A stretch of 64,000 nt of DNA from Candidatus Troglogloeales bacterium (GTDB lineage Bacteria > Nitrospirota > Nitrospiria > SBBL01 > SBBA01): assembly GCA_005239925.1 (NCBI GenBank), contig SBBA01000183.1:27-64026 (forward strand), written 5' to 3'. Shown here piece by piece: positions 18,451 through 57,122 of this stretch. Numbering within the stretch: position 1 is the stretch's first letter; every line of letters begins with the position of its first letter. The translations under genes were made by a program, and so were the position numbers. The notes beneath the pieces were generated by a model. That model made no database searches, had not been told where the DNA came from, and saw nothing but the letters and a program-made list of their open reading frames with translations.

Positions 18451-18499
18451 AGTTACGACTTTCTACCCGTAATAGGCTAAAGGCCATCAATACACTTGT

Positions 18500-29825: not shown

Positions 29826-29984
29826 TTCCTTTGGCCTTTTTCCCCGATTAGGGTTTTGTCCTGGAGAAGGAGTATACCTACTTTAAGTTCCTTATTCCAA
29901 GGGGGGCTGTTAAAATATAACGACACGGAATAACGGGATATATGGGAGTACAAACTCAACCTCTCGAAAGAGGAGGTCACCCGG

Positions 29985-30536
29985 ATGTTTCTTCATCTCT
30001 GGGAACTCCAGGAAATCCATATCTCCTATTATTACTTTGATGAAAACGAAATGCGGCTGAACGATTTTACCCTGATTGACGTCATGTCGATTTCCCCCAG
30101 GGATCGACTGTTTAAGCCCCTTTCCTTTAAGATGCAAACCGGTCTAATCAGAAAAGGAGATCCGTTTGGCAAAGACCATCTCATTTATCAATTCGACCCC
30201 GGTGTTGGATTGGCCTTTCAAAATGAAATGATCGGCCTTTATTATGGGATGCTTATAGCCGACCTGGAAATCGGCGGGATGTTTGACGATCATTATGCGA
30301 TGGGGGTAGGGGCCGAGATCGGCGCTACTATCCGGATCACCGATTTATGGAAGGTCATTCCTTCGGCCAAGGCAATGCGTTATGAGATAGGAGACCGTTT
30401 CACAGAAGGCCAGGGGAAGATCACGCAAACATTCACGGTGGACCAGAATAATACGCTGGGCATCACCGCATCACGTGAGTTACGATGGGGTCAGAAGAAA
30501 ACGAAACTGGGTCTCACCTGGCATTATTACTTTTAG
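29985..30536 (+). CDS. Hypothetical protein, possibly a C-terminal remnant of a larger exported or beta-barrel protein
   Basis: 183-aa ORF with the RBS AGGAGG 8 nt upstream. It has no signal peptide. It ends '...LGLTWHYYF', an aromatic C-terminus like an OMP beta-signal. An in-frame stop lies at 29931 upstream. Confidence 0.45.
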   Translation: MFLHLWELQEIHISYYYFDENEMRLNDFTLIDVMSISPRDRLFKPLSFKMQTGLIRKGDPFGKDHLIYQFDPGVGLAFQNEMIGLYYGMLIADLEIGGMFDDHYAMGVGAEIGATIRITDLWKVIPSAKAMRYEIGDRFTEGQGKITQTFTVDQNNTLGITASRELRWGQKKTKLGLTWHYYF

Positions 30537-30640
30537 GGCGCTTCTAAAAACCCCCTAAATCCCCCTTATCAGGGGGACTTGATCATTCCCCCCTGATAAG
30601 GGGGCGGGGGGGTTAAGTCTTTCAGTTTTTAGAGGTGCCC
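30536..30640 (+). mobile_element. Family B MITE-like element, copy B1 (A-type TIRs, different core)
   Basis: Termini are GGGCGCTTCTAAAAACC and AGTTTTTAGAGGTGCCC. The core holds the hairpins 'TCCCCCttatcaGGGGGA' and 'TCCCCCCtgataaGGGGG'. Its first G completes the TAG stop of the upstream ORF. Confidence 0.75.
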
Positions 30641-30668
30641 TCACCCTTATAGAGGATTTAACTTACCC

Positions 30669-31451
30669 ATGATCTCTTTGATCACTGCAGACACACTCCG
30701 AACCCTGGCGGGACTGACCGGATTCTTCCTGTTTGCGGCCATCGAAAATATTTTTCCGTTTGCAAAAAGGATTGACCCGATCCTCCGACATTATCGGATC
30801 AATCTCTCCCTCATGATATGTAATGCCGCTCTTTTAAGCCTTCTGGTTGGAGGAATAACGGCCACCTATGCCCAATTTTTATCAGCCCACCGCATTGGGC
30901 TGCTGCATCAGTTTGATATCGGATGGCCAATGAAGGTATTCTTGACCCTTGTTTTTTTGGATGGGGTCACCTACTTCGTCCATATGGCGTACCACCGTGT
31001 GCCGCTGCTATGGCGTTTTCATCGGGTGCACCATACCGATCGCGACCTGGATGTGACCTCCGCATCCCGTTTTCATCCGGGAGAGATCATTCTATCCTTT
31101 GGAATACGATTGGCCGCCGTGACGCTCTGGGGCCCGCCGTGGGAGGCTGTTGTTATTTTTGAAGGCACCCTCTTTTTCTTTGCGCAATGGGGCCACAGCA
31201 ATTTTACAATCCCCAAGCAGATCGAGCCAACCGTTCGATTGCTTTTTGTGACCCCCGATATGCATCGTCTGCATCATTCGGATTATCGTGCTGAAACTGA
31301 TTCGAACTATTCCACCGTATTGTCCTGCTGGGATCGGATTTTCAGGACCTATACAAAGGCGCCGCAAAGAGCACTTGTGTTAGGATTGGCTGAGTATCCT
31401 GACACAACCCAACTAACCTTTTTACGCTTACTGATTCTTCCTTTTAGATAG
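30669..31451 (+). CDS. Fatty acid hydroxylase / sterol desaturase superfamily membrane protein
   Basis: 260-aa ORF with His boxes 'HMAYH', 'HRVHH' and 'HRLHH' and several TM segments. Confidence 0.8.
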   Translation: MISLITADTLRTLAGLTGFFLFAAIENIFPFAKRIDPILRHYRINLSLMICNAALLSLLVGGITATYAQFLSAHRIGLLHQFDIGWPMKVFLTLVFLDGVTYFVHMAYHRVPLLWRFHRVHHTDRDLDVTSASRFHPGEIILSFGIRLAAVTLWGPPWEAVVIFEGTLFFFAQWGHSNFTIPKQIEPTVRLLFVTPDMHRLHHSDYRAETDSNYSTVLSCWDRIFRTYTKAPQRALVLGLAEYPDTTQLTFLRLLILPFR

Positions 31452-31573
31452 AAAAGTACAGAAATAGGAATTATGGAAAATTGTAAAATTGGATCAATAT
31501 CCCCCCTTTACAAAAGTATCTGATATAATAATAGACTTGGGAAGGGGGGCGAGCGTATTGGGAAATTCAGCGA

Positions 31574-31876
31574 ATGCAACCGTCACAAATCGAAAAGATC
31601 AGAGAGAGGGTTAGGCAAAAACAGTATGACATAACCGCCTGTGCGATGGAAGAGATGTCAGAAAACAATTTAGACATTACCGACATCGAAAATGCCATGC
31701 TTCATGGTCGTATCCTCTGCACTGAAAAAGACAATCCAAATGGAAATAAAGATGAAATCGAAGGGGTATGCCTTGATGAGAAAACGCCGATTGGGGTCGT
31801 GGGCCGCATGACCGAGACGGGCCGGTATCTCATCATGGGTATCTATAAATCATTACAGCGTGAGGAGGAAGCCTAA
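31574..31876 (+). CDS. DUF4258-like putative toxin
   Basis: 100-aa ORF. Its length and pattern ('...ITDIENAMLHGRILCTEKD...GVVGRMTETGRYLIMGIY') fit DUF4258. The stop overlaps the downstream start (TAATG). Confidence 0.55.
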   Translation: MQPSQIEKIRERVRQKQYDITACAMEEMSENNLDITDIENAMLHGRILCTEKDNPNGNKDEIEGVCLDEKTPIGVVGRMTETGRYLIMGIYKSLQREEEA

Positions 31877-32112
31877 TGTATGACTATCGTTGTGAGTATT
31901 GTGAAGGAACGGTTATGCCCTGTCTTGTTGAACGAGAAACATTCAAGCATGAGAACGGTTTTGTTATACTTGAGGACATTGAAATTGGCATTTGTGATCA
32001 GTGTGGAAGTCGGTATTATAGCGCGGATATTCTTCATACAGTCCATGAAATTGCGACGGAAAGAAATTATCCTGAAAGGATGGAGGCCATTCCAGTTGCA
32101 CGTTTAATGTAA
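31876..32112 (+). CDS. YgiT/MqsA-type zinc-finger antitoxin-like protein
   Basis: 78-aa ORF with 'CEYCEG...ICDQCGSRYYS', the YgiT-type CxxC...CxxC arrangement. Confidence 0.65.
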   Translation: MYDYRCEYCEGTVMPCLVERETFKHENGFVILEDIEIGICDQCGSRYYSADILHTVHEIATERNYPERMEAIPVARLM

Positions 32113-32229
32113 GACTGGAATCCCACAGATACCTTCTTTACACCCCTCCTTGGATAAGGGGTGTGGAGGTTCGTCTCTGTCCTGAAAACAACGAAAGCAG
32201 TTGCACTTTATTGGCTATAAGGTGTTATA

Positions 32230-32338
32230 GGGCGCCTCTAAAAATCTAAAGACGCAACCTCCTTCCCCCTTTTATTAGGGGGAAATGCGGTAAAAGTCCC
32301 CCTGATAAGGGAGATTGAGAGGGTTTTTAGAGGCGCCC
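32230..32338 (-). mobile_element. Family B MITE-like element, copy B2 (inverted relative to B1)
   Basis: Termini are GGGCGCCTCTAAAAATC and GGTTTTTAGAGGCGCCC. Flanking direct repeat is TATA/TATA. The core is the reverse complement of the B1 core. Confidence 0.75.
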
Positions 32339-32389
32339 TATACTATTTTCTTATATCTTTCTTGCATCCATTATGGGGAGGCGATTACT

Positions 32390-34567
32390 ATGGCAGATAT
32401 GGAACGAAAAGAAAACAGGGTTTTACGGCGTCCCGATCGGATTCACCGATTGGGAGAAATTGCTTATAACCTGTGGTGGAGCTGGCACCCGGATGCCCGA
32501 AGCCTTTTTAGTCAATTAGAGCGTGACCTTTGGAAACGCACGCAACATAATCCCATAGAGATTTTACGGGATATCTCCCAGGAGCGGCTTGAAGAGGCCG
32601 CCCACGACCCGGCCTTTCTCGATCATTATGATCGTGTCCTGACGGCCTATGACGCCGAACATGGCAAACGATCCACCTGGTTTAACCAGAACTTTCCCGA
32701 TCATGCCAACAAGACGATTGCCTATTTCTCAGCGGAGTTCGGCATCCACAATTCCCTGCCGATTTATTCCGGCGGCCTGGGCCTTCTGGCAGGGGATCAC
32801 TGTAAAGAAGCGGGCGAGTTAGGGCTGCCCCTTGTGGGCGTCGGCTTTTTATATCAGCACGGCTATTTTCACCAATATATCCATTCCGACGGCTGGCAGG
32901 AGGCCGCGTCTAAACCCTTATCCATGGACTCGGTGGCGCTTCGGTCGGCCGGTTCGCCGGACAGAGTCCTCATTGAAGTCCCCGTCGGTGTGAATAACAC
33001 CGTGTATGCGGCGATCTGGAGGGTTCAGGTCGGGTCGGTTCCCCTGTATCTCATGGACACGGATATCCCGGAAAACCCGCCCTGGAATAGGGAGTTATCA
33101 GCCAAACTTTATCCCGGCGACCAGGAGTTCCGAATTCGTCAACAGATTGTTCTAGGGATTGGCGCGGTTCGCACCCTGCGGGCTATGGGAATTCACCCGT
33201 CCGTATGGCATTTGAACGAAGGCCATACCGCCTTCATCATGCTGGAACGGATTCGCGAAGGGGTGGCTTCCGGATTGCCTTACGAAGAGGCCGCATATCG
33301 GGTTCGGAAAAGCACGGTCTTTACCACCCATACCCCTGTTGCCGCCGGTCATGATATCTATCCGTCCTCGTTGATTGAAAAATATTTTTCTAATTTCTGG
33401 CCGTCCATGGGGGTGGATCAGGCCGGGTTCTGGGCCATGGGATGTCATCAGGGGCCGTGGGGAGACGCCTTTAATATGACTGCCTTGGCCCTGCGTTTAT
33501 CAGACGGGCACAATGCGGTAAGTCGTTTAAATGGCAAAATCTCACGCAAGATGTGGCATCACACCCTATGGCCCCAGTGTGAGGAAGAGCAGGTGCCGAT
33601 TACTTCGATTACCAATGGCGTTCATGTTCCCACCTGGGTGGCCCAGGAGATCAAGCATTTGTACGAGGAATATCTGTCCCCCGATTGGGTAAGTCGTCAC
33701 GACGATCCCCTCCTTTGGAAAAAGGTGTTTGATATCGGAGACGCCCTTTTCTGGGACACGCATCTCCATCTCAAAAGAAAACTGTTGCGATTTATTCATG
33801 ATCGTGCCCGCTCCTTATGGACCGATCGGCGAGTTGACCCCAGCCAGATACTGTCTTCCGGCGCCTTGCTGGAAGCCGAGACGTTTACCATCGGGTATGC
33901 ACGCCGGTTTACCGCCTATAAACGTCCGACGCTTCTTTTTCATGATCTGGATCGCTTAAAACGGATTCTGACCAATCGGTGGCATCCGGCGCAGATTGTC
34001 TTTGCGGGCAAGGCCCACCCGGCCGATGATGTCGGAAAACGGGCGATTCAACAGATTTACAATTTGGCCCGCGATCCCCAATTGGCCGGTCGAATCGCCT
34101 TTGTGGAAAATTATGATATGCGATTGGCCCATGACCTGGTGCAGGGGGTAGACCTATGGCTGAATACCCCGCGTCCTCCCAACGAGGCCTGCGGCACCAG
34201 CGGCATGAAGGCCGCTATCAACGGCGTACCCACGTTAAGCGCCTTGGACGGTTGGTGGATTGAAGGATACAACGGGAAAAACGGCTGGGCCTTTGGGAGA
34301 AACGGTGCGGCGAGCGAATCCGGCATGTCACATGAGGAGCAGGACAAAGAGGACGCCAATGGCATCTACGAACTGTTGGAGAAGGAGATCATCCCCTTGT
34401 ATTACGAACGAGACTTAAAGGGGGTTCCCCATAAATGGGTGCAGGTCGCCAAGGAAACGATCTCTTCAGTAGGGGCGGCCTTTTCCGCTCGAAGGATGAT
34501 GAAGGAATACACGGAAAAACTGTATATCCCTGCTGCACGACGCGCCGACCATGAAAGTTGTTCATGA
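32390..34567 (+). CDS. glgP: Alpha-glucan (glycogen/maltodextrin) phosphorylase, GT35 short bacterial/archaeal type
   Basis: ATG 32390 has the RBS GGGGAGG. The ORF-track start at 32315 lies inside repeat B2. The PLP-lysine region 'EACGTSGMKAAINGV' is present, and the N-terminus 'LGEIAYNLWWSWHP' is typical. Confidence 0.9.
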   Translation: MADMERKENRVLRRPDRIHRLGEIAYNLWWSWHPDARSLFSQLERDLWKRTQHNPIEILRDISQERLEEAAHDPAFLDHYDRVLTAYDAEHGKRSTWFNQNFPDHANKTIAYFSAEFGIHNSLPIYSGGLGLLAGDHCKEAGELGLPLVGVGFLYQHGYFHQYIHSDGWQEAASKPLSMDSVALRSAGSPDRVLIEVPVGVNNTVYAAIWRVQVGSVPLYLMDTDIPENPPWNRELSAKLYPGDQEFRIRQQIVLGIGAVRTLRAMGIHPSVWHLNEGHTAFIMLERIREGVASGLPYEEAAYRVRKSTVFTTHTPVAAGHDIYPSSLIEKYFSNFWPSMGVDQAGFWAMGCHQGPWGDAFNMTALALRLSDGHNAVSRLNGKISRKMWHHTLWPQCEEEQVPITSITNGVHVPTWVAQEIKHLYEEYLSPDWVSRHDDPLLWKKVFDIGDALFWDTHLHLKRKLLRFIHDRARSLWTDRRVDPSQILSSGALLEAETFTIGYARRFTAYKRPTLLFHDLDRLKRILTNRWHPAQIVFAGKAHPADDVGKRAIQQIYNLARDPQLAGRIAFVENYDMRLAHDLVQGVDLWLNTPRPPNEACGTSGMKAAINGVPTLSALDGWWIEGYNGKNGWAFGRNGAASESGMSHEEQDKEDANGIYELLEKEIIPLYYERDLKGVPHKWVQVAKETISSVGAAFSARRMMKEYTEKLYIPAARRADHESCS

Positions 34568-35106
34568 AAGTCGTTGAAGAACCGCTGCTTCGTAAAAAAG
34601 TTGTTTACCAGGGAAGATATGTACGAACGGAAGAGCAGACCGTAAGGCTTCCGGATGGAACCGAGGCCATGCGGGAGATTGTTTGCCCCCCGGATGCGGT
34701 GGGTATTCTGGCCATCGATAAAAATGAGATGGTTTATTTGGTGCGGCAGTATCGTCCCGCGATCCATCAAATTACGTTGGAGATTCCGGCCGGGATCATT
34801 GATCCAGGGGAGACGGAAGAAGCAACGGCACGGCGTGAATGCCGGGAAGAGATCGGGTTGGTACCAGGGAGACTGATGTTCCTCTTCTCTTATTTTCATT
34901 CAGTCGGATTTTCCACCGGCAAGATTGCTGTTTTCCTGGCGACTGATCTTACGCCTTCAGACGGCCCTCATCCCGACTCCGAGGAGTTCTTAGAACAGGT
35001 TGCTCTCCCTTTTAATGAGTTGTATCAAAAGGCGACTTCCGGAGAAATCGTCGACAGCAAAACGTTGCTGGCCGCGCTTTGGTATCAACAGAAGAGACGT
35101 GCATGA
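34564..35106 (+). CDS. NUDIX hydrolase (ADP-ribose pyrophosphatase-like)
   Basis: It has the Nudix box '[22 protein letters not shown]'. ATG 34564 overlaps the glgP stop as ATGA. Confidence 0.85.
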
Positions 35107-35762
35107 ATCCAGATTCCTCTCCTCCTTTACGTCCCATATTAAAGACACCCCACGGCGAGAAAAAGCTCCTGCTGCACTCCTGCTGCGCCCCTTGTGGCGG
35201 GGAGGTCATGGAGGCGCTCATCGCGTCCGACATTGCGTTTACGATCTATTTTTACAATCCGAACATTCATCCCCATGCCGAGTATCTGTTGCGAAAGGAT
35301 GAGAATATCCGGTTTGCCAATCAACATGGGATTCCCTTTATTGATGCCGATTACGACAAGGAAAACTGGTTTGACCGGGTGAAAGGGTTGGAGATGGAGC
35401 CGGAACGTGGGGAGCGATGTACCGTTTGTTTCGATATGCGGTTCGAGCGATCGGCATTGTACGCCCATGAAAACGGCTTTCATCTTTTTACAAGCACGCT
35501 GGGTATCTCCCGATGGAAGGACATGGATCAGATTAATCGCGCTGGGGTTCGGGCGGCCAGCCGGTATCCGGAGATGACCTATTGGACGTTTAACTGGCGA
35601 AAGGGCGGGGGAAGCGCCCGGATGATTGAAATTTCAAAGCGTGAGCATTTCTACCAGCAGGAGTATTGTGGCTGTGTTTACAGTTTGCGCGATACCAATC
35701 AGTGGCGATTAAAGAATGGCCGCTCGCCCGTCCAACGCGGCGAGAAATTCTATGGCGATTAA
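35103..35762 (+). CDS. queH: Epoxyqueuosine reductase QueH (DUF208)
   Basis: '[15 protein letters not shown]' and 'YCGCVYS' are the conserved Cys motifs. The ATG overlaps the nudix stop as ATGA. Confidence 0.85.
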
Positions 35763-35768
35763 TGGGTC

Positions 35769-36179
35769 TTATGGAATAGCCTGAATCTGCTGACGCATCT
35801 TTTTGGCCTGGAAGGAGGCCCCACGGGCTGCTTCATAGGCTGCATGGGCATCACCCGCCTTACCGAGTTGAATCGCCTTATTTATCCTTTCGAGCGTTAA
35901 TTTCAGAGAGTCAAGGGTCTCTTTCTTTGCCTTGATCTGGGGCATATTGCTGGATTGAACCTCCAAGATCAACGCCTTGATCTGTTCGACCGCCTTTTCC
36001 CCATAGAGGACAATCTCGTGGGTATGCCCCTCCCCACCGTGGTGAACCATCTCCTGGGACAGTCGGTAGATTTCGTTTGAACGTTTTCGTGTAGACTGGA
36101 TCGGGTCTTCTTTTGCGGTGATATCACCCGATGAGAGAAGGAACGCCAATAGCAACACGAAGGGAATAATCTTTTGCAT
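35769..36179 (-). CDS. Small periplasmic His-containing protein (SmbP-like, tentative)
   Basis: 136-aa ORF with a signal peptide 'IIPFVLLLAFLLSSGDITA'. It is helical and contains 'HHGGEGHTHE' and 'GDAHAA'. Confidence 0.5.
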   Translation of the reverse strand: MQKIIPFVLLLAFLLSSGDITAKEDPIQSTRKRSNEIYRLSQEMVHHGGEGHTHEIVLYGEKAVEQIKALILEVQSSNMPQIKAKKETLDSLKLTLERINKAIQLGKAGDAHAAYEAARGASFQAKKMRQQIQAIP

Positions 36180-36254
36180 TTTTTTTCTTGTTTCGGAGAA
36201 AAAAGTATCATAGACTTGGCAAAATCGTCAACATAGAAAGACCGCCGACACATA

Positions 36255-38147
36255 ATGTTATTTCATACAGAGATTTCATTTACGCCTCCTTTTGTGACAT
36301 TTCCCTATACGAACACCCGATTTTTAAGTCAGGTATTTTCCCACTCGACAAATATTTTTTTCATCTTTTCTCTAATGCTGGTTCTCACGGCTGGCGTTGC
36401 GGATGCGCGGGGTCGTTGGGATGTCTTGCAGGGGGAAGTGAGCTCCAACGCCCTCTGGGGAACGCATTTTATCTCGGCTAAGGAAGGTTGGGCGGTGGGA
36501 ACCCAGGGAACGATTCTTCATACCGTGGATGGCGGCGCCCATTGGCGCGCCCAGCACCGCGCTTCCGATGAACGTTTTTTTGCCATTGATTTTGCAGATG
36601 CCAATCATGGCTGGGCCGTCTCGTGGACAGGCCGGATTTTCAATACCATCAACCGGGGTGAACACTGGGCGGAACAGGCCCGGCCGATCCACACCTGGTT
36701 ATGGGATGTTGATTTCCACGATGCCCGATACGGCTGGGTCGTGGGAAATAACGGTGTCATTATTAATACGATGGATGGCGGTAAAACCTGGCGACAGCAG
36801 AAAAGCGGCATTTCGTCGGCCCCCTTGCTGGGGGTTTCCTTCATTGATGCATATCGGGGCTGGATTGTGGGTTGGAACGGGGTGATTTTGCATACCCAGG
36901 ATGGCGGTAAAAAATGGGTTCATCAAAAGAGTGGAACCAAGACGCCGCTAGAGGCCGTTTTTTTTATTGACGCTAAAAACGGGTGGGCCGTAGGACGCAA
37001 GGGGACTATTCTGCATACCGTAGACGGTGGCCGACACTGGCGGCATCAGAAGAGTCCTGTAGAAAACCTTCTTTTGGGGGTCCAGTTTATCTCGCCCAAA
37101 CTGGGTTTTACTGCAGGGGGGTCGGGTACCTTCCTAGTGACGAAGGATGGTGGGGAAACCTGGGAGAAGCGGGCCGTTTCTTCGGATAGTACCATAGAAG
37201 GTTTTTCTTTCTCGGATGCGCGCCATGGTTGGGCCGTCGGTTGGGGCGGCGTGGTGCTTCACACCCAGGACGGTGGTGAACATTGGGAGACGCAAAACTA
37301 CGGCTTTTCAGACCGATTTTTCCGTATTCATTTTGCGGATACACGTTATGGTTGGATAGCCGGTGCAGATGGAACCCTTTTACATTCATCCAATGGGGGG
37401 GAGAGTTGGACAACACAAGAAACAGGAACCCAGGAGTGGGTCCTTTCGGTTTTTTTTGTGTCAGAAAGTACAGGGTGGGCTGTTGGTGAAAAGGGATTGA
37501 TGCTTCATACCACCGATCGGGGCCAAAATTGGAAGCCGCAGACCAGACTGGTTGAGGCAGGCCTCGAAGGAGTTTTTTTCTTAAATGAGAAGATCGGTTG
37601 GGTAGTGGGCGAGAAGGGAATTATTTTTAAAACGGTGGACGGGGGAAAGCGATGGCGGCTTCAAATTAGCCCGGTCTTTACCTTGTTAACCGATGTGTTC
37701 TTTGTGGATCAAAAAAAGGGATGGATTACGGGAGACGCCGGAACCCTTCTCTACACGGAGGATGGAGGGGAGCAGTGGCGTCCTGTACCTATAAAAACCC
37801 AGGCATTGTTAAGCCGAATTATCTTTCCAGAGGCCAGGAGGGCCATTACCGATGTCGGTTATATTGTGGGGATGCATGGAACTGTTCTAACGACATCAGA
37901 CAGTGGGCTTCATTGGCATTCCGTGAATGTCGGACTATCGGTCGGGTTATGGGATATTTTTAAGAAAGGGAGCGAAATTTGGGTTGTAGGTGATCTGGGC
38001 GTTATTTTGTACAGCCCGGATCAAGGCCGGCATTGGGAGACAATCGAAAGCGGCGTTGTTCAACGTCTTACAGGCGTCTTTTTTACTGAGCCAAACCGTG
38101 GCTGGATTATTGGCAAGGGTGGGCTTATTCTTAAGTTTAGTCCCTGA
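36255..38147 (+). CDS. Ycf48/BNR-like beta-propeller repeat protein
   Basis: 630-aa ORF. It has more than 12 repeats of 'GWAVG..G.ILHT.DGG..W..Q'. The hydrophobic leader is 'IFFIFSLMLVLTAGVADA'. The exact start is uncertain. Confidence 0.75.
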   Translation: MLFHTEISFTPPFVTFPYTNTRFLSQVFSHSTNIFFIFSLMLVLTAGVADARGRWDVLQGEVSSNALWGTHFISAKEGWAVGTQGTILHTVDGGAHWRAQHRASDERFFAIDFADANHGWAVSWTGRIFNTINRGEHWAEQARPIHTWLWDVDFHDARYGWVVGNNGVIINTMDGGKTWRQQKSGISSAPLLGVSFIDAYRGWIVGWNGVILHTQDGGKKWVHQKSGTKTPLEAVFFIDAKNGWAVGRKGTILHTVDGGRHWRHQKSPVENLLLGVQFISPKLGFTAGGSGTFLVTKDGGETWEKRAVSSDSTIEGFSFSDARHGWAVGWGGVVLHTQDGGEHWETQNYGFSDRFFRIHFADTRYGWIAGADGTLLHSSNGGESWTTQETGTQEWVLSVFFVSESTGWAVGEKGLMLHTTDRGQNWKPQTRLVEAGLEGVFFLNEKIGWVVGEKGIIFKTVDGGKRWRLQISPVFTLLTDVFFVDQKKGWITGDAGTLLYTEDGGEQWRPVPIKTQALLSRIIFPEARRAITDVGYIVGMHGTVLTTSDSGLHWHSVNVGLSVGLWDIFKKGSEIWVVGDLGVILYSPDQGRHWETIESGVVQRLTGVFFTEPNRGWIIGKGGLILKFSP

Positions 38148-38270
38148 AGATCTGCCTGTCACATCCTGAAGAATATCAAGTCAATGGGGGCTCTCGTTTT
38201 TCTTCGTAGCCTCACTCGATCCTTTCCAACAAGGCTGATAATGACTCTTCATCGGAGCGGAAGTATATCC

Positions 38271-38430
38271 GGGCACCTCTAAAAACCTACTGCGCGGCCT
38301 AACTACTGTGTTGCGCGGGCGTGACGACGCCTGCGGCGCTCGAAATCCTCATGTACACTGCGACCATTACGATTCTTGTGCGTAGTAGCCCTTGCATTTG
38401 AGCCGCTGGCTACGGTTTTTAGAGGTGCCC
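38271..38430 (+). mobile_element. Family A MITE-like element, copy A4 (160-bp subtype)
   Basis: It has perfect TIRs GGGCACCTCTAAAAACC and GGTTTTTAGAGGTGCCC. Flanks are ATCC/ATTC. Confidence 0.8.
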
Positions 38431-38803
38431 ATTCCTTAAATAAACATAAACTGTTTATTAGGTAAATAAAATAAATACAATTAGAGTATTGACAAAGTAG
38501 AGTTTTTTTGCTATCGTTCCAAGCATCGTAAAACTGATGCGCTTTATGTCTGTAAACTTGTTGGATTAATTGGCTGTGGCTAATGTTTACTATAATCAGG
38601 GTACCTCTTTTAGGTGGGGTGGTTTGTTCGATATCGTTGACTGGGCGTTGAAAAACGATGAGCCGGTGATTGTGATGGGGCGACAGTCACAGAAGGCCCC
38701 CTCAGGCACTAACAAGAGAAGAAGGTTTGACGCCAAGTGGGATAACCGGTTCCAGGAAAACCTGAAGCTGGATTAGTTAGAAGGTTGTTTAAGTCAGAAC
38801 GGA

Positions 38804-38844
38804 AGAAGGAGGGTATAGGGTTATATTGGGGTGGTCCTCCTTCT
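38804..38844 (+). promoter_or_regulatory. Hairpin sequestering an SD-like AAGGAGG just upstream of the 38863 gene
   Basis: AGAAGGAGG (38804-38812) pairs with CCTCCTTCT (38836-38844), giving a 9-bp perfect stem and a 23-nt loop. Confidence 0.35.
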
Positions 38845-38862
38845 CTGGTGTGAAGGTTATGG

Positions 38863-40620
38863 GTGGGAGAAGTAGGGGTGAGGCTGATTCTTTTTTCGGT
38901 TTTGTTAACGCTAGCCCTCTGGGTAGGCTATGTTAGGTGGGATAATACTTCTGGTGTAGTTGTAGGGAAAAAGGGTGGGTTTGTGGAAAGCAGTGATGAG
39001 ATGGCAAAAGTAATGATCCCGGCTATGGCGATTTCAGATAAAATAGTAGTCACGGTAGAGGGGATTTCCGATGTGCCCCCTGAGACGGTTGGAAATGCCT
39101 ATGAATTTAGCCCTGATGGAACCCGTTTTGCTCGTCCTGCAACCATCACGATTGCGTATGACGAAACAGCGCTTCCTGATGAGGTAGATGAGGCTGATCT
39201 TACGTTAGGGTATATGGTGGGTGGTCGTTGGAAAGCGGTTACCGATGCAACCGTGGATACGGTTGCTAATACCGTTACTGGCCGTTCCGTTCATTTTAGC
39301 CGTTTTGGTGTGTTTCGGGCTGGCTCGCGTACGGTAGGCATCGAGGGTGGGGTCGTTGAAAGTGAGGATGGAAAGGCTAACATTGTTGTTCAGTCCGATG
39401 CCGTTTTGGCCGATACTGCTTTTACCATAGATCCTATTTCTGATACTCCAGAGGGGACTATTGGGTTGGCTTACCGACTCGGACCTGAGGGGTCTCATCT
39501 GGCCCGGCCTGCTGTCCTTTCGGTTGTCTATGACCCGTCTGTCATTCCGTTGGGGGTTGACGAGGCCGATCTGGCCTTAGGAACCTTAGTGGATAATCAA
39601 TGGCAGGTTCTGACAGGGAGTGTAGTAAATGTCATTACAAATACTGTGCGTGGAAGCGTTGTACGGTGGGCCCCTTTTAATGCCTACAGTGTTCTGGCCC
39701 GCCCGTTGCCAACCATTGAAAATCCCTCCTTTGAGTCGGGCGTTTCTGCTGTAAAAAACTTGGTTCCAGGACGGAGTTATACCATTACCGGTTTATTGAA
39801 AGGGGTGGGTCGTTGTTGTACGGGTGATATTACTTCATTTGGCGTGGCCGTGGATGGGCGAATTATTTTTGAGCGGAGTCGGCCGCTCAAGGATCAATTT
39901 GTCCCGTTCACGACCACGTTTCCTGCAACTTCTAGTAATCACACCGTATCGTTTTTTGCTGAGCGAAAGAGTTTGGATGTTGGCTATGCCGTTGATGATA
40001 TTGCCATTGCTCCACAGAGAGGCTTTAATCTGATGATAAAAGGTCTTTCCACAGGAAGGGGTGTTGTTACATCAAATCCTCCCGGGATTGATTGCAGTCG
40101 GGACTGCTCCGCCTCATTTGCTTCGGGAACGAGCGTCACTCTAGTTGCAAAAGCAGAACGAGGATTTGTTTTTTCGGGTTGGACAGGAGAGGAATGCACA
40201 GGAATGTGGGTCTGTACGCTGACGATGGACTCCGCTAAGGCAGTCAAGGCGGTTTTTTCTCATCCGTCGTCCAATGCAGCGCTGTCTAGCCTTATGACGG
40301 TCTCTCCAAAAAGTTATGGGGAGGGGCGGCTTGAGCCAGACTTTAGTCCCGAGCTAAAGGAATATACAATTTCAAGACTTGAACCTGGCTTTATTGGCTT
40401 TATGGCCTCTGCAGAGAGCCCTGATGCTGCAGTTGTTGTTGGGGGAAGTGAGGTAGCTTCTGGTCAGTGGTCACGCGTTTATTTTGATGGAACAGATGTC
40501 ACCATTCCTGTTGTTGTAACCGCCCAGGATGGAAAGACAATGAGGGGGTATACGGTACGGTTATGTCGGTGGTATTGTATAGATTCTAAAGGTAGTTTAG
40601 GTAAAAACCCCCAACTTTAG
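38863..40620 (+). CDS. Secreted or anchored protein with an InlB-B-repeat-like module and a cadherin-like beta-sandwich C-terminal domain
   Basis: 585-aa ORF (GTG 38863 or GTG 38878) with the N-terminal anchor 'LILFSVLLTLALWVG'. Two similar about 140-aa N-terminal repeats ('...ITIAYDETALPDEVDEADLTLGYMVGGRWKAV' and '...LSVVYDPSVIPLGVDEADLALGTLVDNQWQVL') are present. It also contains 'VVTSNPPGIDCSRDCSASF..GTSVTLVAKAERGFVFSGW'. Confidence 0.7.
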   Translation: MGEVGVRLILFSVLLTLALWVGYVRWDNTSGVVVGKKGGFVESSDEMAKVMIPAMAISDKIVVTVEGISDVPPETVGNAYEFSPDGTRFARPATITIAYDETALPDEVDEADLTLGYMVGGRWKAVTDATVDTVANTVTGRSVHFSRFGVFRAGSRTVGIEGGVVESEDGKANIVVQSDAVLADTAFTIDPISDTPEGTIGLAYRLGPEGSHLARPAVLSVVYDPSVIPLGVDEADLALGTLVDNQWQVLTGSVVNVITNTVRGSVVRWAPFNAYSVLARPLPTIENPSFESGVSAVKNLVPGRSYTITGLLKGVGRCCTGDITSFGVAVDGRIIFERSRPLKDQFVPFTTTFPATSSNHTVSFFAERKSLDVGYAVDDIAIAPQRGFNLMIKGLSTGRGVVTSNPPGIDCSRDCSASFASGTSVTLVAKAERGFVFSGWTGEECTGMWVCTLTMDSAKAVKAVFSHPSSNAALSSLMTVSPKSYGEGRLEPDFSPELKEYTISRLEPGFIGFMASAESPDAAVVVGGSEVASGQWSRVYFDGTDVTIPVVVTAQDGKTMRGYTVRLCRWYCIDSKGSLGKNPQL

Positions 40621-40647
40621 TACTAGGGGAGAAAGAGGAGGTTCAAC

Positions 40648-40899
40648 ATGGAATTATTTTTAATTGGAAGTAATGGTGAGTTAGCCGGTATTTCAAAGAG
40701 GAAGAAGACGTTGGTCAAGGGGCCGTCCAGGACAGGTAAGAGCCGGCTCCCTTTTGAAAAATCTAAGTTATCGCCTTCCTCCTTACGTGAAGAAATTCGC
40801 TTAATGCTCTATCTTTCTTCTCGTCTTGTGAATGAGGGTAAGGCATTAAAATCGCAGGATGTGGGTGTGACGAGTTCGCTCTCGTCACAATGCGCCTAA
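40648..40899 (+). CDS. Small basic hypothetical protein
   Basis: 83-aa ORF with a strong RBS GAGGAGG 7 nt upstream. I recognise no similarity. Confidence 0.4.
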   Translation: MELFLIGSNGELAGISKRKKTLVKGPSRTGKSRLPFEKSKLSPSSLREEIRLMLYLSSRLVNEGKALKSQDVGVTSSLSSQCA

Positions 40900-41111
40900 T
40901 CCTCTGCCTCCCTAAGGGCACTCCTTACAAAAGGGGAACGAGCAAGGAGGGTTCTCCTCCCTTAAGCTGGGGGGCTATTTTCCTTGATAAATAGGGAGGC
41001 GGAGTACTTTTAAAAAGGCCTTTTTGAGCTGGTCTGGCCCTGCCGTGTAGATGCGTTTCTTCTTTTTGGGTCCGGGTCACTTTTTTAGCGGTTTCTTGGG
41101 TTTACCATAAA

Positions 41112-41271
41112 GGGCACCTCTAAAAATCGTAGTGAGGGCTCAAATGCAAGGGCTACTATGCACAGGAACCGCAATGGTCGCAGTGTACATGAGGATTCCG
41201 GGCATTGCAGGTCTCGTCACGCCCGCGCCACGCAGCAGTTGCGGCCGCGCAGTAGGTTTTTGGAGACGCCC
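41112..41271 (-). mobile_element. Family A MITE-like element, copy A5 (160-bp subtype, inverted)
   Basis: Termini are GGGCACCTCTAAAAATC and GGTTTTTGGAGACGCCC. The core is the reverse complement of A4. It supplies the last about 17 codons of the small minus-strand ORF 41217..41426. Confidence 0.8.
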
Positions 41272-41548
41272 CTAATATGGGCGGTTTCTGATACGTGATC
41301 CTTACTGTTGCTTGGTGCCTTTCGGATCATTTTTCTGATTTCTTCGGGTGGAATCTTTTTCAAATCGTGGCAACTTATCATGGGCTGTTCCTCCATCCTG
41401 AAAATTTTAAAGGAACCCTCTTCCAATGCCCTTAAGCTTTCTCATGATATCAAGAATGGGATGCCGTCTCCACCTTCTCTATAGTCCTTATTTTCTAACC
41501 CATTTAACTGATATGTCCTACCTATCGGGTAGTCGTTAAAAGGGCTGT

Positions 41549-42822: not shown

Positions 42823-42882
42823 GGGGAACCAACCCATCCCCGCCTGGTACTGTGGTACATTAATTGCGCAACATGTTGGTTC

Positions 42883-42992
42883 ATCATTCCGGCATGTCTC
42901 TAGCCGGAATCCAGGGTTACGCCATTGCGGGCAGTGTCGAACGCTTTGACTCCGACAGCTCTGGATTCCGGCTTAAACATTGCCGGAATGAC
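42883..42992 (+). repeat. Family C nested-hairpin element, copy C1 (ribBA-ribH spacer)
   Basis: Outer arms are aTCATTCCGGCA and TGCCGGAATGAC. Inner arms are AGCCGGAATCCAGGG and CTCTGGATTCCGGCT. Length is 110 bp. Confidence 0.75.
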
Positions 42993-43035
42993 AGGGATTT
43001 TGTTAGCCCTGTAGGCAGATGGGTTTTCGTAACGC

Positions 43036-46918: not shown

Positions 46919-46970
46919 AAAAGGAGAAAATGATCTTTGGCCCAAGGCTACGACGTATTAACTTAGATGT

Positions 46971-47056
46971 GTCATTCCGGCAATTTTTAAGCCGGAATCC
47001 AGAGTTGTCTGTAGTAGCTTAACCCTGGATTCCGGCTAGAGGCATGCCGGAATGAC
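46971..47056 (-). repeat. Family C nested-hairpin element, copy C2 (cheY-cheA spacer, inverted, short core)
   Basis: Ends are GTCATTCCGGCA and TGCCGGAATGAC. Its reverse complement aligns with C1 and C3 but the core is 24 bp shorter. Confidence 0.75.
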
Positions 47057-47120
47057 AGACGAACATGTTGCACAATTGATAAGCCACAGTACTCGGCTGA
47101 ATTTATTAGAAGATATTACT

Positions 47121-49268
47121 ATGCCACCAAAAAAACAAAAACAAAACCGAATGCTGCAAGAGTTCATTCCCGAAGCGGAGGAACTCATTGACATCCTTTC
47201 ACAGAATCTAAACCAGATTGATGGGATGCCCAACAAGGATGCGGTGCGTCCCGACACCGTCAATGCAATTTTCCGCGCGGCCCATACCCTCAAGGGGATG
47301 TCGGGCATGATGGGCTTTAATAAGGTCTGTGACGTCAGCCATCATTTTGAGGATATCCTGGATAAGATTCGGATGGGCAAGGCCTCGTTTACGCCAGTAC
47401 TGCTTAATCTCTTGATTGATGGGGTCAGTCTGTTGCAATCGCTGGTCAAGGCGGCTGGTCTGGGGAAGCCTGGGCCCGATGTCAGTTTTTTTGAAGAGCG
47501 AATTCGTTTATCGATTGCTGAAAAGCCAAAAGTAACGGAGGACGATCTGATTGCCAAGCTCGATCTGGGCGCGACTTTTCCCAATCTTTTGACCGAATAC
47601 GAACAACATCGGCTACTTCATAATATCAAGACGGAGGCGCGGCTGTACGAGGTCGTCGCCACGTTTCCGTTGGAGACCTTTGATACCGATTTGTCGGCGT
47701 TAACCGCCCGCATTCAAGCCTCCGGAACAGGCGAGATTATAGCGACCCTTCCTGGCCCATCCCCCACGGGTGGCATGGAATTTCGTCTGGTGGTGGGCGT
47801 TCTAAAAGAGGGAGAGCCCCTGGAAACCCTGATTCCACCCTCAGATACAATCACAATCAGGGTTTTAGGCGAACAGAAGGCGTTGGCGCCCACGCAAACA
47901 GAATTGACATCAACGGCTCCGGCTCCCGCGGACAGCGGAACACCTTTAGCGAAAGTCGAACCGCATCTACCCGAAGCGGCGTTCCAGCCACCACCATCGG
48001 CCTTCACCAATGGCGAAGCCGGCATGGATGATCTGGAGTCGATCCGGAGTCTAAGTCAGACCGTTCGTGTTGATATTGAAAAATTGGACCTCCTGTTGAA
48101 TATGGTTGGGGAACTGGTGATCAGCAAAAGCCAGATCAGTCGAATCAGCCGAAAATTGTTGGATCAGGATGGGGCGTCTCCTCTGGCGTTGGAGGTACAA
48201 AAGGCCTCGAAGACTTTGGATAAAAGGGTGACGTCGTTTCAGGAAAAGCTGGTTGAGGTTCGGATGACCCCGATCGGACAAATCTTTGAGCGTTTGGTTC
48301 GCGTGGTGCATAAGGTTTCAAGGGACTTGGGCAAGGAGGTGGACCTCCAATTCTCCGGCGAAGAAACCCGGATGGACAAGTCTATGGTGGAAGAATTGGC
48401 CGACCCGCTGCTTCATCTTATTTTAAACGCGTTGGATCATGGGCTTGAAGATACGCAAAAACGAATTGCCCTCGGTAAACCGGCAACGGGTAGCATTATG
48501 GTTCGCGCCTCTCAGCAGGGGAATCATGTCGTCATCGAAGTTGAGGACGATGGACAGGGAATCAATACAGAGAAGATTTACCAGAAGGGGCTTTCCAAAG
48601 GCTTGGTGACACAGGGCAAGCAATACACTCAGAACGAATTGATTCGGCTGCTTTTCCTGCCGGGATTTTCAACGAAGGATCAGGTTAGCCAGGTGTCAGG
48701 AAGGGGCGTGGGGATGGATGTGGTGGCAAAAAATATCTCCAAACTTTCCGGCATGGTTGATGTTGAAACAGTGTTGGGTCAGGGGACGATTTTTACATTG
48801 ACCCTTCCGATCACGTTGGTGATTATTCATGCCCTGATTGTGAAGGTCGGAAAGGAAACCTTTGCGATTCCACTTTCCTCTGTACTGGAAAGTCTGATGA
48901 TTTCGGAAGGGGATATTAAAACGATTGAGTCGCAGGAGATCATTCAGCTTCGAGAAGAGACCCTGATGTTGGTTCGCCTGAAAGACCTCTTTAGTCTGCA
49001 AGAAGGGGAGAAGACCTCTGGAAATCCTTATGTGATTGTGGTGGGTTTGGCCGAGAAAAGAATGGGGCTGGTTGTTGATGATATTCGAGGCCAGCAGGAG
49101 GTCGTGATCAAGTCGTTAGGGGAGGACCTGAAGAATATTGATGGCATTTCGGGGGTCACCGAGCTGGGGGATGGCAAGCTGATTTTGGTTTTGGATATTG
49201 CCTCGCTGATCCAGGAGGTCACGGAAAAAAGGGAGGAGAAGACCACCGAAACAGGTGCTAGAAGGTAA
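47121..49268 (+). CDS. cheA: Chemotaxis histidine kinase CheA
   Basis: The Hpt domain has 'RAAHTLKGMSGMMGF'. The HATPase domain has 'DDGQGIN' and 'GRGVGMDVV'. A C-terminal CheW-like domain is present. The ORF is open to ATG 47052, which lies inside repeat C2, so ATG 47121 or 47151 is more likely. Confidence 0.9.
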   Translation: MPPKKQKQNRMLQEFIPEAEELIDILSQNLNQIDGMPNKDAVRPDTVNAIFRAAHTLKGMSGMMGFNKVCDVSHHFEDILDKIRMGKASFTPVLLNLLIDGVSLLQSLVKAAGLGKPGPDVSFFEERIRLSIAEKPKVTEDDLIAKLDLGATFPNLLTEYEQHRLLHNIKTEARLYEVVATFPLETFDTDLSALTARIQASGTGEIIATLPGPSPTGGMEFRLVVGVLKEGEPLETLIPPSDTITIRVLGEQKALAPTQTELTSTAPAPADSGTPLAKVEPHLPEAAFQPPPSAFTNGEAGMDDLESIRSLSQTVRVDIEKLDLLLNMVGELVISKSQISRISRKLLDQDGASPLALEVQKASKTLDKRVTSFQEKLVEVRMTPIGQIFERLVRVVHKVSRDLGKEVDLQFSGEETRMDKSMVEELADPLLHLILNALDHGLEDTQKRIALGKPATGSIMVRASQQGNHVVIEVEDDGQGINTEKIYQKGLSKGLVTQGKQYTQNELIRLLFLPGFSTKDQVSQVSGRGVGMDVVAKNISKLSGMVDVETVLGQGTIFTLTLPITLVIIHALIVKVGKETFAIPLSSVLESLMISEGDIKTIESQEIIQLREETLMLVRLKDLFSLQEGEKTSGNPYVIVVGLAEKRMGLVVDDIRGQQEVVIKSLGEDLKNIDGISGVTELGDGKLILVLDIASLIQEVTEKREEKTTETGARR

Positions 49269-51991: not shown

Positions 51992-52035
51992 GGGCACTGT
52001 TTTCAAAAGGACTTTCAACTTTTTTGTAGGTTTTT

Positions 52036-52145
52036 GTCATTCCGGCATGTTTCTAGCCGGAATCCAGGGTTACGCCACTACGGGCGGTGTCGAACGCTTT
52101 AGCTCTGACATCTCTGGATTCCGGCTTAAAGATTGCCGGAATGAC
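52036..52145 (+). repeat. Family C nested-hairpin element, copy C3 (mcp-cheW spacer)
   Basis: 110 bp, near-identical in layout to C1, with perfect outer arms GTCATTCCGGCA and TGCCGGAATGAC. Confidence 0.8.
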
Positions 52146-52196
52146 GTATGTGTGTAAGATGTTTTATTAACAGTAGGGTAGAGGTATTGTAAACCT

Positions 52197-54478: not shown

Positions 54479-56944
54479 TTGGATCACATGGAGCGTGAAA
54501 TAACCCTTTCAAAAAAGCAGTCCATTCAATGCCCCCATTGTCATGCCCGGGTTAATCTAACGGTGTCCGTTGATATCGCCCACGGGGAGGCCGCTTTAGA
54601 GACAGACTCAGGTCCTGTATCTCAACTAGGGCAGTTGTCTATACCTCATGATATTCCATTAGACGATCGCAGTGTGGTTGTTGCGGTCAATGGCGAAGGA
54701 ACAGCGGGCTTTATAAAAGACCTTCTGGAGGGATCACAATTTAATGTGATTTCTGTTTCCTCCCTGGAGGGCGTTTTTTCTGTTCGTGGCGAAACCTTTC
54801 CGGGAACCGTCCTCATTGATTTAGGGCTTCCCAATATGCCGATGATGAATATTGGCGAAGTGATGCACCGATCCACACTGATCCTTATTTCCGCCGGATA
54901 TGGCAATAAGGGGGCCTATTCTGCCGCGGATGCCCCCGCGTTTGGCGCCAACGATTATATCGAACGGCGGCATATTCAAAGAGACCTGATTGATAAAATC
55001 CTGTTTCACATCCGTCAACGCAACATGGTGGGTGTTCTTGAAGAAGAGGCATCACTGGTGGGTGTTGGAACAGTAGCGTCAACGGAATCCCCCTCGCAAG
55101 AGACGATACTTGAATATCCTCCACCTGTAGCCGATGAAGCGATTGCGCCTACGGTTTCAGAGAATTTGACCGAGGCCTTCGTTACAGAGGAGGCAGAGTC
55201 TTCGGTGGCGACAGGCGTTGTAGAGGAGGCGCTGCTTTCCCCATCTGTTTTATCCGAATTATCTGTCGAAACCTTCCCGGATCAGGAATTGCCACCTCAA
55301 GAGGGTCTTTGGGGCTTACCTGAAAGGCCGTCTCCCTTGGCCGTCGAGGAGATGGAATCAATTACAACGGAACCACCGCCACTTGAAGCAATCGTGCCTC
55401 CCCCTATCGAAGAGGAGATTCCGGTGCCCGTGTCTGCACTGGTGCAAGCGCCCGAACAAGCGTCAATGGAAGCGCCTGTAATTGAGGAGGTTCCTTCTAT
55501 TGCCCAGGAACCAACGGTGTATTGGGAGGAAACGGAAAGTCCTGTAGCTGTTCCCGATGTGGAACCGTCGTTTGATATGAGCCCGGTTGACGAGGCAGTG
55601 GAACCGGTGGCGGTACAGGAGCCTTGCTTTGAAACGATGGAGCCTCCTGTTACGGCAGAAGAAAGGGAGTCCGTTGAATCGGTCTTAACGCCTGAGGAAC
55701 CTGTGCTGGCAGAGGAACCCTGGGTTAAAACAGGTGAGCTGGAAGAAGCGGCTCAATCTGTAGATACTTTCGAAACCGAAGAAGCCAGGCCCCCTTATCC
55801 GGTGGCCCCCGCTTATGAAACCGTGGAGCCCCCCGTTTCAGAGCCAATAAGTCCTCCTTCGCTGGAACCTGAGCCTGTTGTTTTTGGGTATGAAGTCGAA
55901 AATGCATGGGATGTTCGGCCCCCAGGGCCTGTCGTTGAAGAGCCGGAGTCTGTCATTGAAATTGATGAGCATGATGGGGAGACCGAGCTTGCCGAGGCCA
56001 TGCGTCAATCTACATCAATAGCAGAGACGTTTGAAATTGAACGACGGCCGTCTCCATTTGATGAAGTGGCCTCTCCTGTTGCGGAAGTTCCTTCTACAGA
56101 GGAAAGTGATCGCTACACGACGGAACCCTCTCCCCTGGTCACAGAATATGAAATGGAACCGGTGGGGCCTGTCTCGGTCGAGGAGCCCTACGTTGAGGTG
56201 AGTGAATCAGGGGTTGAATCAACTGGAACAATAGACACTGAAGAACAGCCTTCTTATTCGGTAGAACCGTCGCCATTTGATACGTCCCATGCCCCTGTAG
56301 AAACACCGAAGGCGCCGCTTGTTGAAGAATTACCTATCGTCACAGGATATGAGACAGAGCCAACGGAATCGCCTACTGCGTTGGAAGAAGCGCCCTATGC
56401 CGTCAAGACAAGTGAACCAGAGACCGCATCAGCAGAGGTATTAGAGACCGAAGCGGCACCCGCTTCTGTGGAGACGCCCTCCCCATTTGAGACGGCATAT
56501 GCCCCTGTAGCAACGCCCGAAGCGCCGTTTGTTGAGCAGGCGGCTGCTGTTGTCTCTGAATATGAAATGCAACCGGTTGAATCAGCTAGTAGCGAGGCCG
56601 CTTTGTCGGAGAAACTAACGATTGAGATGTTGCTGCAACAAGCTCAGTCCCTTGAGCTGCCACAAGAAACCCCTCTCGTTGATGAAATTGATCCAAAGGA
56701 ATTAGAGTCGGCAAAACGGTTGGCGCGTATTATTGTTTCGGATATTGTGCTTTATAACGAAAATAAGGTTTTAAACGGCATTCGGAACAACACCTTCTAT
56801 GTGCTCTTAAAAGACGATATTGAAGAAGGACGAAAGCATTACAACTCTCGTGTCTCTCCTAAAATTAGAGAACGGGCAGACCATCTTCTGGATGCGTTTG
56901 AGGCCTATATAAAGAGGAAAAAGGGCAGTCTTAGTCTAAACTAA
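54479..56944 (+). CDS. Large acidic Pro/Glu/Val-rich protein with an N-terminal receiver-like region and a conserved C-terminal module
   Basis: 821-aa ORF (TTG 54479 or ATG 54488). 'VLIDLGLPNMP' sits in a REC-like segment. A roughly 500-aa low-complexity acidic region contains about three repeats of 'PSPF(D/E)..(H/Y/A)(A/S)PV..P.AP'. The ordered C-terminus is 'AKRLARIIVSDIVLYNENKVLNGIRNNTFYVLLKDDIEEGRKHYNSRV'. Confidence 0.7.
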   Translation: MDHMEREITLSKKQSIQCPHCHARVNLTVSVDIAHGEAALETDSGPVSQLGQLSIPHDIPLDDRSVVVAVNGEGTAGFIKDLLEGSQFNVISVSSLEGVFSVRGETFPGTVLIDLGLPNMPMMNIGEVMHRSTLILISAGYGNKGAYSAADAPAFGANDYIERRHIQRDLIDKILFHIRQRNMVGVLEEEASLVGVGTVASTESPSQETILEYPPPVADEAIAPTVSENLTEAFVTEEAESSVATGVVEEALLSPSVLSELSVETFPDQELPPQEGLWGLPERPSPLAVEEMESITTEPPPLEAIVPPPIEEEIPVPVSALVQAPEQASMEAPVIEEVPSIAQEPTVYWEETESPVAVPDVEPSFDMSPVDEAVEPVAVQEPCFETMEPPVTAEERESVESVLTPEEPVLAEEPWVKTGELEEAAQSVDTFETEEARPPYPVAPAYETVEPPVSEPISPPSLEPEPVVFGYEVENAWDVRPPGPVVEEPESVIEIDEHDGETELAEAMRQSTSIAETFEIERRPSPFDEVASPVAEVPSTEESDRYTTEPSPLVTEYEMEPVGPVSVEEPYVEVSESGVESTGTIDTEEQPSYSVEPSPFDTSHAPVETPKAPLVEELPIVTGYETEPTESPTALEEAPYAVKTSEPETASAEVLETEAAPASVETPSPFETAYAPVATPEAPFVEQAAAVVSEYEMQPVESASSEAALSEKLTIEMLLQQAQSLELPQETPLVDEIDPKELESAKRLARIIVSDIVLYNENKVLNGIRNNTFYVLLKDDIEEGRKHYNSRVSPKIRERADHLLDAFEAYIKRKKGSLSLN

Positions 56945-57035
56945 TCCGCCGACGGGCGGAGGCGAGTAGGCCCTCTCGTTGGGCGGGACGCCGCCTGCAA
57001 TTGGTCTGGGTAAAAAAATATTTACGCAAAAAAAC
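56945..57035 (+). repeat. Family D post-stop-codon element, copy D3
   Basis: Starts at the base after TAA 56942-56944. The first 22 nt are identical to D2 ('tccgccgacgggcggaggcga'). It ends in 'tatttacgcaaaaaaa'. Confidence 0.65.
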
Positions 57036-57068: not shown

Positions 57069-57122
57069 GTCATTCCGCAATCGGCGTTCTGACCGGCAGT
57101 GTTTAAGCCGGAATTCAGTGAC
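57069..57122 (-). repeat. Family C element, truncated and degenerate copy C4
   Basis: The reverse complement 'ctgaattccggcttaaacactgccgg...aatgac' matches the right half of C1 and C3, with an 18-nt insertion. Confidence 0.5.

Follow-up and report, generated by a model that had tools for sequence, protein, structure and literature searches.

The rib and chemosensory gene runs of an uncultivated Nitrospirota bacterium carry, in their spacers, copies of a hairpin repeat here called family C, and the question raised by this locus is whether these copies are RNA elements that partition expression within operons, as a reading of the sequence alone had proposed, or DNA repeats inserted between genes. 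The analysis covered the whole stretch of DNA, 64 kb long and called the window throughout, together with the orthologous loci of relatives and the occurrences of the repeat in other genomes. We consider it quite probable that family C elements are inverted doublets of hairpin repeats similar to the Ssn-related motif (SRM) and to NTS, that is, of the type targeted by the Ssn nuclease, and that they are carried in inserted intergenic units.

Three full copies and a partial one are present, at the coordinates given in the sequence-only reading: C1 (core 42883-42992, + strand) between ribBA and ribH, C2 (46971-47056, - strand) between cheY and cheA, C3 (52036-52145, + strand) between mcp and cheW, and a fourth copy (57069-57122, + strand) before a HEAT-repeat gene; no further family C copy was found in the window. 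Synteny with Pfam-annotated relatives upholds the three gene pairs, and the genes flanking all copies are on the + strand. Each full copy consists of two SRM hairpins placed head to head. Each half, of 31-33 nt and of the form yGTCATTCCGGCA-N7-AGCCGGAATCCAG, is a hairpin on its own, in which the reverse complements ATTCCGGC and GCCGGAAT form an 8-bp stem around a 9-nt loop. The halves lie at 42882-42914 (+) and 42961-42993 (-) in C1, at 46970-47002 (+) and 47025-47057 (-) in C2, and at 52035-52067 (+) and 52114-52146 (-) in C3. They are separated by 46 nt in C1 and C3 and by 22 nt in C2, a difference of 24 nt that agrees with the shorter core previously ascribed to C2. The inversion of C2 is equally clear, with unit alignments against C1 scoring 62 in reverse complement and 11 in direct orientation; C3 is 92% identical to C1. 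Each full copy contains CCGGAAT/ATTCCGG four times, as had been described, and the 12- and 13-mers of the outer and inner arms have six exact matches each in the 64 kb, all in C1-C3. The arm sequences of the sequence-only reading hold in general, with the exception of the left outer arm of C1, which is ATCATTCCGGCA, begins with ATC in place of GTC, and so departs by one mismatch from the arm reported. The copy at 57069-57122, formerly described as truncated, is a degenerate solo half without a partner, laid out as GTCATTCCG[15-nt insert]CCGGCAgtgtttaAGCCGGAATTCAG, with the insertion in the outer arm and with CCAG changed to TCAG.

The history of these copies can be read from relatives of the window, which is placed in Nitrospirota by its PurB; the closest named matches of this protein, at ~69% identity, are in Nitrospiria and Candidatus Manganitrophaceae. 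Relative L115 has the same gene order as the window, at a nucleotide identity of 85%; for L116 the identity is 70%. The gap between ribBA and ribH is 40 nt in L115 against 213 nt in the window, and that between mcp and cheW is 15 nt against 205 nt; C1 and C3 are therefore absent from L115. L116 has none of the three at the corresponding positions and carries an SRM doublet elsewhere, in a divergent spacer (2586-2688). The extra DNA relative to the empty sites amounts to ~185-195 nt, corresponding to the 110-nt core with ~35-55 nt of flank per side. Because they are missing from orthologous spacers (two of the three in L115, all three in L116), C1-C3 are lineage-specific insertions and not conserved operon features.

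The boundaries of the inserted units could be placed by the same comparison. The whole C1 stretch without a counterpart in L115 runs from 42826 to 43030 (+ strand; blastn breakpoints 42825/43031), the inserted unit being ~192 nt; its left flank, 42842-42882, is homologous to a C2 flank both by repeat search and by alignment. The C2 unit with its flanks, homologous to those of C1, spans 46938-47097 (- strand). The C3 unit (51995-52178, + strand; blastn breakpoints 51994/52179) starts directly after the mcp stop codon, ends ~18 nt before the cheW ATG, and has flanks unlike those of C1 and C2. Since the cores are ~90% alike but the flanks only 35-75% alike, the copies are mosaic; flanks common to C1 and C2 are found again in the element of L115. 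This element occupies the cheY-cheA spacer of L115 (12985-13140) and is related to the C2 unit at 46938-47097, with another left stem (ATTCCCGA/TCGGGAAT) and with two compensatory stem changes in one half-site. It aligns better in the orientation opposite to that of C2 (score 42.5 versus 20.5), and the opposite orientations could reflect independent insertion or inversion in situ. The C2 insertion also explains a false start codon, which the sequence-only reading had rightly suspected: the cheA reading frame can be extended to an ATG at 47052, inside the right arm of C2, and the conserved N-terminus MPPKKQKQN begins at 47122, where the element-less L116 gene starts, so that cheA most likely occupies 47122-49268 (+ strand). 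In addition, a contig of a short-read assembly ends inside C1.

The window contains other repeats as well. A second family, of ~165 nt and with terminal repeats GGGCACCTCTAAAAACC, has copies at 2700-2870, 14883-15037, 18305-18459, 26746-26795, 30534-30580, 32294-32347, 38267-38439 and 41109-41274; a solo copy adjoins the SRM unit of L115 (12951-12967), and in L018, a Myxococcales MAG, an SRM doublet is bounded by these same terminal repeats. These repeats are frequent in an 11.6-kb segment of the window (29906-41538) that has no counterpart in the syntenic L115 and encodes DUF7840, fatty-acid hydroxylase, phosphorylase-like, NUDIX, QueH, small metal-binding and Ycf48/BNR-repeat proteins. The chemosensory run includes an 821-aa ORF (54479-56944) with internal direct repeats (56138-56577) and no Pfam hit. 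Its end is overlapped by a copy of a short hairpin repeat, CTRATCCGCCGACGGGCGGAGGCGA (56941-56965, terminator-like on the - strand), which is 96% identical to a copy at 5242-5266 and occurs also at 1889-1913.

For either strand of the full elements the predicted minimum-energy fold is one long nested hairpin, in line with the nested arms of the sequence-only reading. Its energy ranges from -28 to -36 kcal/mol as ssDNA (z -7.8 to -9.7; C1, -34 kcal/mol, z -7.8) and from -50.6 to -62.4 kcal/mol as RNA, and the four-way alternative containing two local hairpins is less stable by 10-18 kcal/mol, or ~10-12 kcal/mol under ssDNA parameters. The long hairpin forms because both halves of each window copy carry the same stem, and copies in other genomes indicate whether it is this fold or the local one that is conserved. 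When one genome per species was scanned for TCATTCCGGCA-N7-AGCCGGAATCCAG (24 specified bases), at least 113 loci were found, in MAGs labelled Syntrophobacteraceae, Desulfuromonadales, Nitrospirota, Elusimicrobia, FCPU426, Omnitrophota, Firestonebacteria, Gammaproteobacteria and others, with one match in a bin labelled Heimdallarchaeota (archaeal). An inverted partner hairpin, looked for within 120 nt, lies 7-46 nt away from at least 78 of the 124 half-sites, and the doublets are ordered '+ then -' in 25 cases and '- then +' in 2. The ATTCCGGC stem is shared by 14 of the 78 partners, six of which are the window's own halves; the remaining partners have 27 other stems, for example ACCCCGGC, ATCCCCGA, ATGCCGGA and ATTCCCGC, and some of them, as in L113, contain the exact NTS. 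A relaxed hairpin detector was too permissive genome-wide (24 hits versus 21.6 in shuffles) and was applied only beside exact half-sites.

Covariation was assessed on 33 distinct partner halves picked by their flanks alone (GTCAY-N23-CCAG). The local hairpin is paired at 96.2% over these halves, against 17-47% in slid controls, and compensatory double-change cells number 49 against 13.3 in shuffles, none of 500 shuffles reaching 49; GTCA and CCAG are invariant. As this covariation supports local pairing, the conserved structure is the local hairpin with its GTCA/CCAG flanks, and the nested hairpin arises incidentally where a doublet is homotypic. Metagenomes yielded more than 120 further homotypic doublets, mainly with 4-nt loops and a 24-nt spacer; the lineage-specific spacer had no hits in the metagenome scan, and C3 had no match in the plasmid collection (blastn, sensitive mode). 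Viral contigs gave 2 matches to the half-site (L247, L248) in 2.9 million, to be set beside at least 113 genome loci from collections of a different size, which is only a hint that the motif is rare in phages. In an FCPU426 MAG (L031, 3731-5866) two inverted SRM halves 2.1 kb apart bracket two AT-rich ORFs of 258 and 195 aa, which may be cargo between SRMs.

A literature search with the raw sequence words of the repeat found nothing relevant. The form GTCATTCC-stem-loop-stem-GGAATCCAG resembles the dRS3 repeat of Neisseria, and the dRS3 literature led to Ssn and SRM. Chenal et al. (2025; PMC11893778) define NTS, the Neisseria Transformation Sequence (CGTCATTCCCGCGMAVGCGGGAATCYRG), and the degenerate SRM; SsnA is a 94-aa single-domain GIY-YIG protein whose binding to the hairpin requires ssDNA. 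It cleaves a few nucleotides upstream of the hairpin, acts in an orientation-specific manner and is inactive on dsDNA and RNA (PMC11893778). In N. meningitidis, SsnA reduces transformation by NTS-bearing DNA, and GTC before the palindrome together with the C directly after it are the critical positions for binding and cleavage (PMC11893778). Binding and cutting of ssDNA have been shown for four Ssn homologs only, those of N. meningitidis, N. elongata, N. wadsworthii and Wolbachia pipientis (PMC11893778).

The published SRM pattern, HGTCWYN(0-2)YYVSBRHN(0-5)WNVSBRGN(0-2)RNCYNB, matches five of the six halves of C1-C3 and no other site in the 64 kb; 50 dinucleotide shuffles of the window averaged 0.5 hits and never exceeded 3. 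The sixth half, on the left of C1, misses the pattern solely through the G-to-A change in GTC, and the degenerate solo half at 57069-57122 does not match. The words flanking the halves are the same as in NTS (CGTCATTCC...GGAATCYRG), and the critical GTC and following C are otherwise kept in all six full halves. Two points run counter to the identification or qualify it: the left half of C1 has ATC at the cleavage-critical GTC, and the nested fold, 10-12 kcal/mol steadier as ssDNA than two local hairpins according to the predictions, could mask the SRM sites. The window halves are thus like SRM and NTS in pattern, in their GTCATTCC...GGAATCCAG flanks, and in being oriented, intergenic and multicopy. 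They differ from NTS, which has the stem ATTCCCGC and a 4-nt loop, in the stem ATTCCGGC/GCCGGAAT with its 9-nt loop, in their arrangement as inverted homotypic doublets able to form a single nested hairpin, and in their host. With dRS3 and the NIMEs of Neisseria they share the arrangement of short inverted hairpin repeats around variable spacers in mosaic copies; however, the dRS3 consensus ATTCCC-N8-GGGAAT is not found in the window, which has ATTCCGGC-N9-GCCGGAAT, and the links of dRS3/NIMEs to Nf prophage integration and surface-antigen genes are absent for the window copies.

The window's motif variant also brackets small GIY-YIG genes in other genomes. At locus L034 the arrangement is SRM(+)-9 nt-ATG...stop-2 nt-SRM(-), with the exact ATTCCGGC variant, around a GIY-YIG ORF that is apparently frameshifted in a T6 tract. 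The 96-aa protein matches PF01541 and has at least 7985 homologs at E<=1e-10, the best 120 of which are 75-93% identical to it. The same SRM-ssn-SRM bracketing, with ATTCCGGC stems, was seen in all three homologs whose contigs were examined (within L117-L126). From their size, Pfam domain and SRM flanks, the 96-aa proteins are putative members of the Ssn clade (cd10448). Downstream of ssn, at L118-L121 (~1792-1960) and L123 (~1792-1850), the outer SRM arm with 14 further nucleotides (TGCCGGAATGAC + GGGAAGAGGATGCC) is repeated in tandem 2-5 times, and the copy number varies between otherwise similar ssn loci; these tandem repeats could have been left by recurrent nicking or slippage where Ssn cuts. 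No ssn homolog was found within the 64-kb window, nor in the motif loci besides L034, as one would expect of a gene that a genome carries once or a few times. Since the window has no ssn gene, we infer the link to Ssn in this genome, which would presumably encode its cognate Ssn elsewhere and whose copies Ssn would be able to cut.

The alternative from which the analysis started holds that the copies are RNA hairpins inside operons, maintained by selection because they stabilise the mRNA upstream or set the relative expression of pairs such as cheY and cheA. REP-type hairpins can protect upstream mRNA, the REP/BIME-like character attributed to the repeats is supported, all copies would be co-transcribed, and the predicted RNA folds are very stable. 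The position of the copies in co-directional spacers, correctly described for four of four, is nevertheless uninformative, because 24 of the 29 window spacers of at least 30 nt (83%) are co-directional and four of four is what chance would give. Enrichment inside operons did not emerge across genomes either: at no fewer than 113 loci of other genomes, the spacers holding the motif are co-directional, convergent and divergent in proportions of 52:14:10 against a background of 234:70:63, so that 68% are co-directional against 64%; this is the random distribution that the sequence-only reading had set as evidence against its own proposal. Half-sites show no orientation bias with respect to co-directional neighbours (28:25), C2 is inverted within the same direction of transcription, and no terminator-like or promoter-like site and no U-tract occurs at any window copy. 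Furthermore, the orthologous sites of relatives lack the elements, and the only protein shown to recognise the motif family binds ssDNA, not RNA (PMC11893778). Given the spacer distribution, the orientation, the missing terminators and the empty orthologous sites, the partitioning of expression within operons is unsupported, and selection for such a role is improbable; the elements do not look like designed RNA regulators, and a passive effect of the predicted hairpins on mRNA decay or polarity is possible. A structured non-coding RNA gene or riboswitch-like element, for which the strong predicted structure could be cited, is extremely improbable: Rfam gave no relevant match for the whole window at the gathering threshold or around C1 at E<=10, both orientations occur inside one direction of transcription, covariation backs simple hairpins only, and the copies are insertion-polymorphic.

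Two further explanations concern DNA elements that move. The copies have the architecture of REPINs and BIMEs (Bertels and Rainey 2011, PMC3116915), being non-autonomous, intergenic doublets of inverted ~30-nt palindromic repeats with a spacer, which total ~100 nt and can fold into a single long hairpin, and in both cases copies of the repeat also flank the associated gene. That they are REPINs in the strict sense, REP doublets copied by a RAYT (Y1 HUH transposase), is very improbable, as the only gene found bracketed by the GTCATTCCGGCA...CCAG motif encodes a GIY-YIG nuclease and not a RAYT, the motif with its flanks fits the SRM pattern, and the same 24 bases recur across phyla, unlike the lineage-specific REPs. 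Nor did the clustering of neighbouring ORFs at the loci found by the scan (at least 113; 90-aa cut-off) reveal an associated transposase or any recurrent family; this cut-off admits the 96-aa ssn, but only L034 among the clustered loci has ssn, and there it is frameshifted. The other explanation sees in the ~190-nt units ordinary MITEs moved by a DDE transposase, with the SRM doublet as a mere central passenger. Like MITEs, the units are small, non-coding and insertion-polymorphic, and elsewhere the doublet is central in unrelated units bounded by inverted repeats and with target duplications: the flank inverted repeats exceed the 99th percentile of controls in 18 of 67 doublets, and in L018 the doublet lies between GGGCACCTCTAAAAA terminal repeats, which are also the ends of the other repeat family of the window. 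In one Desulfuromonadaceae MAG, four contigs (L044, L104, L105, L015) have copies or part-copies of a ~174-nt unit with GTAACTATTCAGCA terminal repeats, three of the four complete at both ends, with duplications that are exact for CTTTTTTC and AAAATATC and 7/8 for AGAGAATT/AGGGAATT. Other doublet-bearing families have TTTGGGGT or ATAGGGTC duplications or CTAG-type ends; overall, duplications are of 8 bp in L044, L105, L014 and L111 and of CTAG type in L009, L067 and L004.

The window copies differ from this picture. Their flank inverted-repeat score, 8, equals the control median, which ruled out reading the flanks as imperfect terminal inverted repeats, and their target duplications are ambiguous, with TAG or TAGGG possible at C3 (TAGGGG on the left, TAGAGG on the right) and nothing clear at C1; moreover, the conserved part is the centre and not the ends. 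As a full account of the window copies the MITE explanation is therefore possible but rather unlikely; it explains the movement of units and not the nature of their conserved core, and in this sense it complements the SRM doublet explanation. DDE transposases probably mobilised some units, the doublet being carried along, as indicated by inverted-repeat ends and duplications in other genomes. SRM doublets also sit at the exact centre of several unrelated MITE-like families, namely the Desulfuromonadaceae set, L014, L108/L111 and L009/L067/L004.

Taken as SRM doublets, the family C elements can be given a tentative mechanism, acting at the level of DNA. SRM is an oriented hairpin DNA repeat, yGTCAT-stem-loop-stem-CCAG, of which the Neisseria NTS/dRS3 is the founding example, and Ssn, ~95 aa with a single GIY-YIG domain, recognises the hairpin in ssDNA and cuts a few nucleotides upstream; an inverted doublet would offer one cleavable site per strand. 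The target may be ssDNA exposed during replication, repair or in incoming DNA. The doublets are carried in units of ~185-195 nt, which entered intergenic spacers once the lineage had separated from its nearest sequenced relatives, and these units behave as non-autonomous REPIN- or MITE-like repeats.

This interpretation places a repeat family of uncultivated Nitrospirota in the Ssn/SRM system described in 2025, and MAGs bearing the labels of many bacterial phyla contain exactly this ATTCCGGC variant. Beyond the work of Chenal et al., it adds filled and empty orthologous sites in related genomes, the dominant inverted-doublet architecture with covarying and often non-identical halves, and the embedding of doublets in MITE-like units with target duplications. 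For annotation, it is a warning that false start codons and assembly breaks occur at SRM repeats. The comparative evidence bears on how SRMs multiply and on whether Ssn is a domesticated mobile-element enzyme; that Ssn spreads doublets is a hypothesis in the discussion of the published study (PMC11893778). A more far-reaching idea, which we regard as doubtful, is that SRM doublets are a mobile module like REPINs, served by Ssn and inserting into single-stranded hairpin tips. If true, it would explain both the doublets at the exact centre of unrelated palindromic MITEs in many phyla and the identical 24-base cores in dissimilar flanks, and Ssn/SRM would be a new transposition or homing system, beyond restriction-like control of incoming ssDNA.
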